A DNA stretch of 64,000 nt from a bacterium (GCA_023266935.1 JAHFOF010000002.1:4469-68468); one strand, 5' to 3'. Numbered from the stretch's first letter, positions 49,999 through 57,338 are shown. Numbers and translations: made by a program. The notes: generated from the letters alone by a model not told the origin.

Positions 49999-52900
49999 CT
50001 ATCTTCCTTGATTTAGATATTCTTGGAATGATTTTATGAGCGCGTCTAAACTTGCAACAACTGATGCAAGATTAGATTCTTGTTGATTCATAATTACAGC
50101 TGGTCCATGAACCGAACCTCCTCCGGTTGGCGCAGAGGTAGGACAGGCAGAAGGTGCTACTGCTGATACTGTTTGCGATGGGCTTGATTCACCAACTGAA
50201 TTCCTTGCGGTTACATAGTACGAATATGTTGCGCCAGGAGTAAATCCACCGGATGCTGAGGTCACACCACTGTCTGAGTAGGATGTACCTGATATGGTTA
50301 CTTGCAAAGGCATACCTCCATAGAAAGCATTGTTTCCACCGTAAATCGAATAAGAAATTGCATTCGACACTGCACTCCACGAGAGGCTGATAGTGTGAGA
50401 ATCACATGAACCTGATGTTGCAGATAATCCTGTTGGGACTACTGGGACTGTAGCTGTCGGCTGGCTCACATTTATTGTGACATTTGCTGAGGCTGTCGTT
50501 CCATTTGTACCAGTACAAGTAACTGTGTATGTAGTGGTTTGATAGATTGGACCGACTGATTGACTGTTGTATATCTCCCCTGCACCATTATTGTATTGAG
50601 TTCCTATCCAAGGAGCTGAACACGAAGAAACATTGTATCCATGCCAATCTAACACTGATGAAGTTCCGGGCAATACATTACTTGAACCAAAGTTATAACT
50701 TGGATTAATTGCAACTGTAACTCGAGGCGAAGGAACGACTATCACAGGAGAAACAGTAACAGTGGTATTCACTGTAGTAGAAATCCCAGCACTGTTATAA
50801 CATGTGGCACTATAGGTAGACGTTTGGGTTGGGTATAAATCCTTAAACACCGGCCACATTAGAACTTCATTTGGCCACAAACAACGAGCCGTATCCGCAG
50901 AAGAATTTAATGTAATCCTAGTTGATTGTCCCGCGGTAATTGATGTTGGGTTTGCGGTCAGAGAAACGGTTGGAGCAGTTGAGTTAAGTAATGGAGAAAC
51001 AGTAACTGTTAAATTCTTCATTGCATATGGACCACTCGCCCCGTTATAACATGTGATGCCATAACCTGTAGAAGCAGTTGGACTGATAGTCACAGAACCA
51101 CTTGTGTTTGTTCCTGATGAAAGAATCCCAACATTACAGGTAGTTGCGTTTGTAGCAGACCAAGTAATTGTTGTTGATTGGCCGACTATTATAGAACTTG
51201 GTGTCGCTATAAATGATATTACCGGCGTTTGAACAACAGATGTTTGAACGGTTAAACTATCATTTGCTGATACACCAGCACTGTTGTAACAAGTCATTGT
51301 ATAGGATGTTGTCTGTGTTGGGTAAACAGTAGCAGTGCCAGAAGTCGTTGTGAGTGTTGTCCACGGAGCAGAACATCTGGTTGTATTTGTTGATGACCAA
51401 GAAATAACTGATGGTGATCCACTGGTAACGATTAATGGTCCGGGAGTAAATGACAGCTCCACAGTTGGTACCGAAGGACTTGAAGATGTTTTGTAAATCG
51501 TCAGACTCTTTGTGTCACTTGGATTAACATCGTATGAATTTCTATATCCTTTGAGTGTATAGGTTGACTGATTTGCCCCCGTTACATTTGACCAAGAAAC
51601 AAAGAACGGATTTACAATTATGTTTGCATAGCCTGAATCTGTTTGACGAGAGACACTATCTACGCCGTTTGTAGTCTGGATTAAATCAATATGGTTACAT
51701 CCATTGGCAATATAATTCAGATTAGCAATAGCTAATGCACTAGGATCAGAAACATTTAGAGTAATGCCTTGCATAGGACTCTGAGTATAGCTTGTCCCAT
51801 TTGCTGTAAATGAAGTGATATTGCAACTTCCGTTGTTCGCGGTCGTAGTTTGGGTTGTGCTGTTTTGAACAGTAACAGTTACACCATTGTTGGCTGACGG
51901 AGGAATGGAACCGTTTATACTGTCACCGTTATAACAAAAAACATAATATGGCATGGTGGCAGTTGGATATACCATTTGACTACCACTTGGACCAGAATTT
52001 CCCCTAACATCATTTGGGCCCAAGCATTTAGTAGCATTCGTTGACGTCCAATTAATGGTTGCTGATTGCCCTGCTGTAATTGATGTTGGGGTTGCCCAAA
52101 CATTGACAGTAGGAGTTGAGACTGTATTAGTTATGGTGGTTGTGTTAGTAGGAGTGCTTATTTTGGTCAAATAATCCTCTGCGCTCCATCCTTGAAAATT
52201 GCCCGGCCAACGAACCATCCACCAACGAGCGCCATTTTGACTACTCAAATCTGTTGTGACTGGACCCATAATCAAGGTGCCAATTGTTCCCGCCGGAAGT
52301 GTTTTGAGTAATCGTGCTGTTGCGCCTTGGGCTTCGCGCACATTTAAATTCTGTGAGGCCCTCACCGTGTCCCAAGGTTTAAGTGGAGAAACTGAGGCTG
52401 CATTTGGATCAAATGGCACAGACAAACTTGCAATAGCTCCGGTGACAGCTGCATAAGCACAATTGTTTACCAAAACTTCATCTACCCCGTCAGCTCCTAA
52501 CTTTGTATTTGTGTATTGTGTGTATGATCGAGCATCTGCAATTAATTTAACATACCCCGGAATTTCATATGATCGTGTTCCCATAACAAACATGGCATCG
52601 TTAGCTGAATCAATCCAAGGTTGAAGGAGTGGGCCAACCACGAAATAACTGACTAGCCCAATGACTATTTGTTTGTAATTAAGACTTATATGTACTTTTG
52701 ATATTAAGGTTCCGCTTTGATTGTCTTTTTGAATGGCTCGACACTCATCCTGAAGTCCGGCTACAGTAATTCCGGGATGTGTCCAAGTTGTATTATCGGC
52801 TTGAATCTTCTGACTCGCCCAAGTTTGAGTAGCAGGAATATAAACTATCTGATAAGCAGCAATCCTTCCTGAAGCAAGCCAAACGCTTACAGCCCGATTA

Positions 52901-56400: not shown

Positions 56401-57338
56401 TTTGGAATAACATGCACAGATAGATTGCCCTCAACACCTCCCCCTTTAATAGCAATAGTCACATCACCGACAGAATTTGCTTTTATGGTTGGACCAGCAG
56501 TAATTGAAGCGATAGATGGATCAGGATTTCTAGCATTCATAGGGGGTTGGGGAGACATTTTTTGGTCAAATTGGTCAAGAACGACCACAGAGATTACCTG
56601 AGAGTCACCGACTTTCAATGTAATAGAACTCGGATATATTTTAATATCAAACGCTATTGGTATGTTTATTGCCACTTTTTGAGTATCGCCTTTTAAAGAA
56701 GCGCACCAATCAATCTCTCCATCATTTTTATAAAATCTTTTGGTATTTTTTTTTGTATCTGGGTTATAGTCTACCGCCGATGAATAGCTGTTTAAGCATT
56801 GCCAAAAAACAACACTCGTCTGATGTTCGCCGTTTGATCGATCTTTATCTATATGTATATCGCATTCATCTAATCGGCACATTGAATCTGATCCTTTATA
56901 TGTATAGCTGCCATCCTGCCCCATGTTGTCTACAGAACAACTATTTTTATAAGAGACTTCATCTCCACCCTTATTAACACATGAAAAACTAAGATCAAGG
57001 CTGGGGCATAGACCATCCTTGCGACTCTCTAATTTTGATTTTATGCGGGCAATCGCAGAATCCATTTTTAATTTACAGTCCTTAGACAGATTCTCGTATG
57101 ATGGATTGTCACTTTGATTCTGGCTGGCTGTAGTCGAAGTTTCTCCTCCTCCACTGCCTCCAGTATTATTCAATTTACACAATGATGGATCGGCAATGCA
57201 TGGATCTTCGTTAGAAACCTCCACTGGCAATGCTGGAGCTTGGAGTTCGGGGATTAACATCACACTCGCTTTGACTTCAATTTGATATGTAAAGAAAGAG
57301 GTAACCAGCAGAAGAAAGACTATTAGAGACTTTTTCAT
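53475..57338 (-). CDS. Giant secreted surface protein (1287 aa). It has a signal peptide, Big/Ig-like and FN3 domains, four tandem ~47-aa Cys-containing repeats and a C-terminal tail shared with the neighbouring giant protein.
   Basis: Signal MKKSLIVFLLLVTSFF. FN3 segments (LSWNAVDGATSYQVYRDG, LSWGSVSGAASYTVERS). Repeats of the form CxxPLxETQTxxCPSGQTGxIxQxHTKSAYPxCxFGSWxTxSNxC, present four times. C-terminus NLASIMAGLNIMFQSLQSYINP. Confidence 0.65.
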   Translation of the reverse strand: MKKSLIVFLLLVTSFFTYQIEVKASVMLIPELQAPALPVEVSNEDPCIADPSLCKLNNTGGSGGGETSTTASQNQSDNPSYENLSKDCKLKMDSAIARIKSKLESRKDGLCPSLDLSFSCVNKGGDEVSYKNSCSVDNMGQDGSYTYKGSDSMCRLDECDIHIDKDRSNGEHQTSVVFWQCLNSYSSAVDYNPDTKKNTKRFYKNDGEIDWCASLKGDTQKVAINIPIAFDIKIYPSSITLKVGDSQVISVVVLDQFDQKMSPQPPMNARNPDPSIASITAGPTIKANSVGDVTIAIKGGGVEGNLSVHVIPKSKLNSLMDTVSGFVSNLVSSVVPNVFKNNDTTAVSSGEPKSNSETSTQKTTEPEKRVLSDIISLSPNPIKVGGRFIIKTKVVPESSNQSYGLTYLTLYTNDRPHEIWYKTVSSNTDSNNITTIVADLNTTEVPPGIYRVGYGQYNGSSAPVLVSNTLPLTVVSSDDSTTNADVPDEVISITPNPVSVGGKFTIKTRVRTDLNYSVPGGARLELFTGIGAAGEWYTTVSASNDSEGITTINAILKSNIDPGSYLVGFASQYGSVLSNTVPMNVAVESVVQKKVYLTNIPPTGFVASPSYCSNNWVNLSWNAVDGATSYQVYRDGALVYEGPALAFSDTNLAFSSTHSYTLKALNDTSVSPAVSTTGKVSSLCSFVVSTNVGPGGTISPTSQLIISGSKAIFTISSNIGQHVVSVKGCEGTLSGSTYTTGAIMGECTISVLFFADSANTVCQSPLSETQTVACPSGQTGHIIQTHTKSAYPSCTFGSWTTTSNTCVVTPTTTTTNTTCTFPLAETQTIACPSGQTGHITQTHTKSAYPSCTFGSWTTTSNTCASAADASCPSPLSETQTVVCPSGQTGSIVQVRTKSSSLGCLFGSWATVSNTCASNSTNNSTPLSVSSCAEPLSEQQIISCPTGQTGSILQVHTKSAYPGCSFGSWITASNSCFVANGSATALVAPTGLTASAGACNSGEINLSWGSVSGAASYTVERSTLATSGFGNPAGSTGIVGTSFSDNVGSPNINLYYRVKAVNGSNISPVSNPVNISSPASCANNPTVSISSSANPIASGQSVNIIWSSTDTTSCSAYGGWSGNKSTSGTETVGPLSQTTTYNISCAGNGINAGNSTIVNVVAQGADTIHPNVSITSPQEGATVSGLVNISANATDNVGIARVQFAVDGVNLGSPIQSAPFSMSWNSTTVSNGPHSVQVTVWDQAGNDAGTGIGITVSNPVTFINNTNLASIMAGLNIMFQSLQSYINP
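54420..55075. repeat. Four tandem ~150-bp DNA repeats inside the 1287-aa surface protein gene; the last two copies are ~95% identical
   Basis: Read directly, e.g. GTTGTCCAAGA(C/T)CCAAATGTACAACTTGGATAAGCTGATTTTGTGTGAGTTTGA... occurs twice almost verbatim (54760..54890 and 54925..55060). Confidence 0.6.

Follow-up and report, generated by a model that had tools for sequence, protein, structure and literature searches.

How a bacterium might hold large exported proteins that carry none of the recognised surface anchors is the question raised by two neighbouring genes in a 64,000-nucleotide (nt) stretch of bacterial DNA (GCA_023266935.1, JAHFOF010000002.1:4469-68468), which we call the window. 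Both lie on the minus strand: gene A, an open reading frame (ORF) of 1287 amino acids (aa) at 57338..53475, and gene B, an ORF of 1134 aa at 53403..49999. A first-pass annotation made from the sequence alone had located both ORFs, given their joint extent as 7.3 kb or about 11% of the window (exactly, 7340 nt and 11.5%) and noted that the two proteins end in related tails, which it put forward as a candidate sorting or anchoring signal. It also called the proteins giant; at 1.1-1.3 kaa they are large, not giant. Judged by its sequence, the tail is a genuine conserved module common to two otherwise unrelated proteins. Nothing we found points to a general surface-sorting or anchoring signal, and we tentatively read the tail as a helix through which the two proteins could associate.

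A conserved tail at the ends of two exported proteins

The N-termini of A and B both read MKK, then a hydrophobic 19-mer, then VKA or AGA, and neither has a lipobox. Residues 1-24 of A (MKKSLIVFLLLVTSFFTYQIEVKA; 57267..57338, minus strand, as for every feature of A and B below) reach a Kyte-Doolittle (KD) hydropathy of 1.78 over residues 4-22, and residues 1-24 of B (MKKLLSFAFLFVFVFSAITPTAGA; 53332..53403) reach 2.06 over the same positions; the B signal peptide is kept in the homologues P0002 and P0003. A type I signal peptide is recognised by a basic n-region, a hydrophobic h-region of 10-15 residues, a small-x-small site and the lack of a lipobox cysteine. By this pattern A and B are predicted Sec-exported proteins, as had been annotated.

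B belongs to a very small family. Whole-protein, N-domain and contig searches together yielded six proteins and one fragment: besides B, three relatives among 5.8 billion protein clusters (P0002, P0003 and the fragment P0015), one locus in 185,579 species-representative genomes (L002) and, from JGI metagenome contigs, the loci L005 and L006. The family architecture is a signal peptide, a short coil, a Cys-containing N-domain, a variable Ig/PKD-like array and the C-terminal tail. Five of the six proteins, from five different assemblies, end in this tail: B (...NQQESNLASVVASLDALIKSFQEYLNQGR, residues 1108-1134, 50002..50082), P0002 (...PNLAASAYAALQVLLQQLSQQLK), P0003 (...SNVFSGLQALLQALSQQIGK) and the ORFs of L002 (...AQVASVIQGFQNLLNALTDYLKTH) and L005 (...SNVYSGLQALLQQLSQSLSK). 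The L006 member lacks it: the protein stops at ...GTGNLTQ, before a TAG codon, and none of the downstream frames encodes a tail.

Gene A, which lies outside this family, ends in ...FINNTNLASIMAGLNIMFQSLQSYINP (residues 1264-1287, 53478..53549, delimited with a tail hidden Markov model (HMM)), and 10 of 22 residues are identical between the A and B tails. So short a match, between two proteins that are both rich in S, T, N and Q, might reflect chance or low-complexity ends with no common function, and a billion-scale search that returned nothing beyond its inputs (below) would suit that explanation. We consider it very unlikely. An HMM built from B-family tails only, with A excluded, was searched against 1201 six-frame ORFs from the window and two related loci; its sole additional match was the C-terminus of A (residues 1265-1286, equivalent to 1268-1289 of the 1290-aa stop-to-stop ORF at 53475..57347), which ranked first with an E value of 0.0018, the next being 1.5. 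That the match falls in the last 22 of 1287 residues has a probability of about 2% by position alone, and the recurrence of the same module at the end of five family members argues further against coincidence. In an alignment of the DNA of five tails, mean column identity is 50% with 5 invariant columns, and the codons of the A and B tails differ at many positions. The tail is thus conserved at the protein level while its DNA has diverged, which indicates an old divergence under selection and not a recent copy.

All six tails have the pattern of a three-heptad amphipathic segment of alpha-helical type. Aligned, they place hydrophobic residues at positions a, d and e over three heptads, have a residue in the middle that is always small (G, S or A) and present a polar face rich in Q, S and N. 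They follow a flexible S/T/G-rich linker at the extreme C-terminus, and five of the six end in K, R or H, the A tail having no charged residue at all. Hydrophobic moments are 0.36-0.58 (0.36 for A and 0.47 for B) and mean hydrophobicity is 0.13-0.35. The best 19-mer in each tail reaches a KD of 0.1-1.1 (0.96 for B), against 3.0 in the true C-terminal transmembrane (TM) anchor of an unrelated protein, P0008, so the tail cannot span a membrane.

Distribution of the tail and tests for a sorting signal

Sortase, exosortase, rhombosortase and archaeosortase signals consist of a short motif, a TM helix and a basic tip. The tail resembles such tripartite signals (LPXTG, PEP-CTERM, GlyGly-CTERM and PGF-CTERM), as well as the C-terminal domain of the type IX secretion system (T9SS), in its extreme C-terminal position and in being common to several exported proteins. 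It differs from them in having no signature motif, no TM stretch and no model match, and in its very narrow distribution. A sortase substrate carries its LPXTG-like motif in roughly the last 35 residues, whereas the nearest ones here lie far from the C-termini, at residue 1093 of A and residue 911 of B. Neither a PEP motif, a TM segment nor an NCBIfam match points to PEP-CTERM, GlyGly-CTERM or PGF-CTERM. The T9SS sorting domain (Por_Secre_tail/TIGR04183, a beta-sandwich of about 80-100 aa) has no Pfam or NCBIfam match, the terminal element being a helix-type segment of about 20 residues, and Pfam scans of the whole proteins and of segments contain no S-layer homology (SLH) domain. The first-pass statement that the tail is no recognisable LPXTG, SLH or T9SS signal therefore stands, and it now extends to exosortase-type signals.

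The proposal that the tail might nonetheless be a true C-terminal sorting signal, processed by dedicated novel machinery, draws on its conserved terminal position on two otherwise unrelated exported proteins of one genome, on its retention in orthologues and on its lying outside every known class. The distribution makes this improbable. Within the window only A and B carry the tail; the sole further signal-peptide protein there, an SLT-like transglycosylase (42781..44193), lacks it. When 1572 ORFs in 139 kb from this and five other assemblies with B homologues were scanned with an HMM of six tail sequences, no additional tail-bearing protein emerged, which leaves one or two carriers per genome fragment. 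Searched with HMMER against 1.84 billion representative proteins, at a scale where so short a profile has little power and with matches listed to E 1e-3, the tail profile returned only its own inputs and three spurious repeat proteins. The inputs recovered were P0007 (A), P0001 (B) and P0002, a fourth, P0003, not being returned; the spurious matches were a tetratricopeptide repeat protein with 'QSNLASVY' and two internally repetitive proteins. Known sortase-type signals also include a TM segment, which the tail does not, and no candidate gene for a sorting enzyme is adjacent in any of five contexts. A literature search produced nothing relevant on a C-terminal signal or amphipathic anchor in Parcubacteria or the Candidate Phyla Radiation (CPR).

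A possible association helix weighed against a membrane anchor

A membrane-associated role would not need a TM helix. E. coli penicillin-binding proteins PBP5 and PBP6 are anchored to the membrane by a C-terminal amphipathic helix, and the tails of A and B could likewise lie in the plane of the outer face of the cytoplasmic membrane. The likeness to these anchors comprises Sec export, a short C-terminal amphipathic helix without a TM segment and a comparable moment (0.36-0.58, against about 0.49 for a PBP5 anchor sequence). The extreme C-terminal position after a flexible linker, the basic or histidine end of five of the six tails and the absence of any other detectable anchor in A or B would all suit such a role. 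We nevertheless hold it to be unlikely, although it is the leading alternative. Mean hydrophobicity is low and leaves most tails short of the range in which helices are usually surface-seeking. The tails also favour Q, S and N on their polar face, where the PBP5 and PBP6 anchors are basic or aromatic; the A tail is uncharged. There is no sequence similarity to those anchors, and the three-heptad periodicity is more typical of coiled coils, so that the strict heptads and the likeness to an N-terminal coil point to helix-helix packing.

That coil is the Q-rich segment near the start of B. It occupies residues 25-47 (53263..53331; pattern I..L...I..L...I..L), and the heptad sequence quoted in the first-pass annotation, IAELQAQIQSLQAQIQALVAQ, is present at residues 27-47. 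The annotation assigned it to the first protein of the pair, which by coordinate is B; in the direction of transcription, B is downstream of A. A Q-rich three-heptad coil stands directly upstream of the roughly 200-aa N-domain in every family member, and the heptad pattern recurs in all of these coils as in all six tails.

We therefore lean, tentatively and with a probability somewhat short of even, towards the tail being a protein-protein association helix on the cell surface through which A and B would assemble. Several properties recommend this reading: the strict heptad periodicity with an a/d/e core, a Q-rich polar face resembling the one on the N-terminal coil, weak cross-matches of the tail profile to the coil in B and L003, the equal length of coil and tail (each about three heptads, both present in five of the six family members) and the fact that most tails are too weakly hydrophobic to be surface-seeking. 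The tail would then be a coiled-coil or helix-bundle element, neither spanning the membrane nor processed by an enzyme. It might pair A with B, with itself or with the equally long N-terminal coil, giving a surface complex. Assembly could retain the proteins on the cell, perhaps aided by an SH3b-like module binding the wall, and the distal N-domain and Cys-rich modules would be free to bind ligands.

A more elaborate version, which we regard as quite unlikely, would have coil and tail act as complementary docking helices, so that B forms a head-to-tail surface fibre and A, docked by its tail on the terminal B coil, serves as a tip or cap with Cys-rich binding modules. If this were true, an ultrasmall bacterium would be building a pilus-like adhesive fibre non-covalently and independently of sortase.

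Several observations weigh against association. The helicity of the tail rests on its sequence pattern, and its binding partner and oligomeric state are putative. L006 has a coil without a tail and A has a tail without a coil, so the two are not strictly interdependent. Between family members the tails are 23-38% identical, which does not exceed the identity of the remaining sequence. The tails of L002 and B come near the surface-seeking range, which only that of L002 clearly reaches. Further tail proteins or a processing enzyme may lie beyond the 64 kb of this genome that were scanned, and short motifs are statistically weak in billion-sequence searches.

A beta-sandwich repeat common to A and B

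Apart from the tail, A and B have in common, as far as their sequences indicate, only generic modules. Both appear to be non-enzymatic cell-surface proteins built mainly of beta-sandwich modules, with no detectable catalytic domain. An Ig-like repeat family had been annotated in both, and a local HMM bears this out, placing five copies of a 2-Cys repeat in B (residues 430-513, 645-722, 726-803, 810-885 and 892-980) and one in A (residues 1083-1160, 53859..54092, E 4e-29). In B, repeat 1 lies at 51865..52116 (E 5.8e-32) and repeats 2-5, spanning residues 645-980, at 50464..51471 (E 1e-28 to 1e-32). The same HMM matches 47 further copies in unrelated proteins from the database search results, and no Pfam family reaches threshold on the repeat.

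In an AlphaFold2 (AF2) model of A residues 931-1165, the repeat at 1083-1160 forms a seven-stranded all-beta sandwich with a predicted local distance difference test (pLDDT) score of 91-98; the alignment was built from repeat copies with FN3 fragments left out, and the FN3 part of the model is poorly predicted. Foldseek against the PDB superposes the repeat on the PKD domain of the archaeal S-layer protein 1l0q (root-mean-square deviation 2.9 A over 86 columns) and on 8cka (3.8 A over 91 columns); the sandwiches matched include CD4, fragments of the GhpA fibre and the HPI S-layer of Deinococcus. The model thus confirms an Ig/PKD-like beta-sandwich fold for the repeat.

Modules of protein B

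The family-defining N-domain of B (residues 73-334, 52402..53187) carries the motifs HNYNKTW, KTDDK, NCG...GCIG and EC...NNCAY and is 41-46% identical to its homologues. It has no Pfam, NCBIfam or PDB sequence match. Its AF2 model is poor (pLDDT 51) and predicts four strands and a helix, twice over. Foldseek found nothing significant; PUR repeats came top, with PUR-alpha repeat I-II (Whirly-like) at E of about 0.1 and probability 0.2-0.4. PUR domains are intracellular nucleic-acid binders, unlike the exported B, and we take the match as a lead only and claim no membership. Within the N-domain, B has an insertion of 60-70 aa at about residues 235-300 (window about 52500..52700) that is absent from the aligned P0002 and P0003. 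It holds a hydrophobic 19-mer at residues 246-264 (IVIGLVSYFVVGPLLQPWI, KD 1.79, borderline for a TM helix), and pLDDT falls to 23-29 over it.

The coil and N-domain travel as a unit. At the N-terminus, a signal peptide precedes it in B, P0002, P0003 and L005. The unit is internal in L002 (residue 150) and L006 (residue 509), where extra Ig-like modules precede the coil. The L002 protein (9563..11668) has two near-identical Bact_surface_Ig-like domains (PF16403, 128 bits), and the 1127-aa L006 protein (7997..11380) is divergent, with extra N-terminal domains, the internal coil and an SH3b-like module.

After the N-domain, B has an SH3b-like module at residues 357-417 (52153..52335) whose match to SH3_3 (PF08239) is sub-threshold (E 0.0037, 17.9 bits against a cut-off of 27) and whose motif NLNVR...GWSAE.Y recurs in P0002 and L006. 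An FN3 domain at residues 987-1086 (50146..50445) scores 29.5 bits against PF00041 (cut-off 25) when scanned alone. An NCBIfam scan of A and B gave no match at E<=0.1, and at curated Pfam thresholds only Big_7 in A and this FN3 domain, scanned alone, pass.

Modules of protein A

The Cys-rich N-terminal region of A (residues 25-225, 56664..57266) has no Pfam match. We considered whether it is a diverged form of the B N-domain and ruled this out (hhalign probability 0.2). A Big_2 match at residues 229-293 stays below the Pfam threshold. After this Big_2-like module and before an S/T-rich linker, residues 313-340 (56319..56402) form a hydrophobic, helix-like segment, KSKLNSLMDTVSGFVSNLVSSVVPNVF. 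As a candidate second tail it shows only a loose resemblance and no match to the tail HMM; a past gene fusion could have left it behind.

Two internal repeats of about 105 aa follow (residues 370-590, 55569..56231; direct DNA repeat D4, 348-nt spacing), with no Pfam match. FN3-like module 1 (residues 599-689, 55272..55544) matches the B FN3 domain by BLASTP (E 5e-5) and a local FN3 HMM, and does not reach Pfam fn3. FN3-like module 2 (residues 985-1081, 54096..54386) matches the local FN3 HMM and is sub-threshold in Pfam fn3 (E 0.1). The FN3 modules of the first-pass annotation thus hold at the Pfam cut-off for B, and for A only below it. Its SH3b/Big-like modules fare similarly: the Big_7 domain of A (residues 1169-1237, 53628..53834; PF17957) is unequivocal at 67.1 bits against a cut-off of 24.1, and the SH3b of B and Big_2 of A are sub-threshold.

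Four Cys4 modules of A and their DNA repeats

Between the FN3-like modules of A lie four 47-aa Cys4 modules (residues 762-977, 54408..55055), recognised by sequence comparison and sharing the pattern C-x11-CPxGQTG-x13-C-xFGxW-x6-C. Sequence searches of Pfam and the PDB gave no match to the module; AF2 gives a small three-stranded unit with pLDDT 73-88. The modules had been described as near-identical and as encoded by tandem DNA repeats of about 150 bp. Four copies of 47 aa are indeed present. Near-identity is confined to the first two (85% aa and 84% nt identity): compared with copy 1, copy 3 has 68% and copy 4 has 66% aa identity, and pairs other than 1 and 2 share 62-70% of nt. The description of the DNA was overstated: the periods are 171, 156 and 180 nt, pairwise nt identity is 62-84%, and Tandem Repeats Finder reported no array at the modules.

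The repeats had also been proposed as substrates for recombinational length variation. At most this could apply to copies 1 and 2, which share the longest exact DNA match, 42 nt; every other pair shares 13 nt or fewer. An independent Logan assembly of SRR14366756 is 100% identical to the window where the two overlap, and in that part of this one assembly no copy-number variation is seen. The Logan contigs break exactly between the first and second copies: L007 stops at A residue 792, and L001 begins at window position 54807. This break is repeat-induced, at the 42-nt exact repeat: a repeated 42-mer breaks contigs in a k-mer assembler, and so the break is not evidence of variation. The locus shows neither the uniformly high repeat identity nor the copy-number differences of a length-variable tandem-repeat locus.

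A conserved slot for B and a lineage-specific origin for A

The gene order tktN-tktC-[B]-pfkB (opposite strand)-fba-FAD oxidase recurs in L003 and L005 as in the window, and A is absent from the tktC-B-pfkB slot in both. On gene order and sequence, B is the local orthologue of a very rare family in this conserved slot. A second family neighbourhood lies between a hisS-like gene and ybeY-ftsA-ftsZ (L002, and L006 by gene order).

For A, no full-length homologue appears among 5.8e9 protein clusters, only domain-level matches. Its absence from the slot in L003 and L005, this lack of a full-length homologue and an N-terminal region unlike the B N-domain together show A to be a lineage-specific mosaic inserted just upstream of B. 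A viral origin was also considered, and no relative was found in IMG/VR. The GC content and third-position GC (GC3) of A (0.41/0.28) and B (0.42/0.29) are alike and similar to those of neighbouring genes.

Transcription and genomic context

A starts 30 nt downstream of tktC, the gene for the C-terminal half of transketolase, and the gap from A to B is 71 nt. Neither gap contains a terminator-like site; across the region such sites are no more frequent than in shuffled sequence. Because the gaps are short and free of terminator-like sites, A and B are probably co-transcribed, and probably in one transcript with the upstream nrd-gap-rpiB-rpe-tktN-tktC genes.

Upstream, transketolase is split into two genes for its N- and C-terminal halves (57369..59258, minus strand), which together with rpiB, rpe, gap and a gene for a class II ribonucleotide reductase make up an operon-like series. 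This central-metabolism cluster has the surface-protein genes at its end, and the layout is conserved in L003 and L005. On the other side, an IS110-family transposase ORF (47695..48789, minus strand; Pfam Transposase_20, 29 bits) sits between pfkB and fba, an interval of only about 20 nt in L003 and L005. Its GC is 0.576 and its GC3 0.674, against a GC3 of 0.28-0.38 in all neighbouring genes, and it looks like a foreign insertion sequence that arrived recently. No rRNA was found in the window.

A contains 34 cysteines and B 18. An ORF at 1979..2683 (plus strand), next to a PAP2 gene at 1431..1961, specifies a DsbA/Thioredoxin_4-like protein whose N-terminus includes a hydrophobic segment. From its sequence this is a plausible extracytoplasmic disulfide oxidoreductase, which would fit the many Cys-containing exported modules of A and B.

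Implications for surface display

A and B resemble many bacterial and archaeal surface proteins with Ig/PKD/FN3 arrays, and the fold of their repeat is ordinary. The first-pass annotation had named such proteins, in episymbiotic CPR (Patescibacteria) bacteria, as candidates for host-cell attachment; for A and B that role, like the CPR assignment, is putative. Like the archaeal S-layer protein 1l0q and Aureispira GhpA (9flv and related), they are long exported beta-sandwich arrays; their 2-Cys repeat superposes on the PKD/Ig domains of these systems, with FN3 and Big_7 interspersed. Sequence membership is limited to FN3 and Big_7. The coil with its N-domain and the heptad tail are not described in those systems, and A and B have no T9SS, type I secretion system or S-layer anchoring element.

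The N-domain with its coil, and the tail, are undescribed at the level of sequence and define a tiny family. Because that family comprises six proteins among billions and the tail does not generalise in the DNA examined, the practical impact is limited to annotating the B family, which joins the great many orphan families of uncultivated bacteria, and presenting the tail as a new sorting signal would be unwarranted. What sets the pair apart is a conserved C-terminal segment of helical type in place of every recognised anchor, alongside a coil of the same length and a previously undescribed domain at the N-terminus. The display and retention of large surface proteins in episymbiotic, genome-reduced bacteria are poorly understood, and if this organism is one of them, A and B offer a small testable case. 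Should the helices mediate assembly, they would represent a new and simple mode of surface-complex formation.

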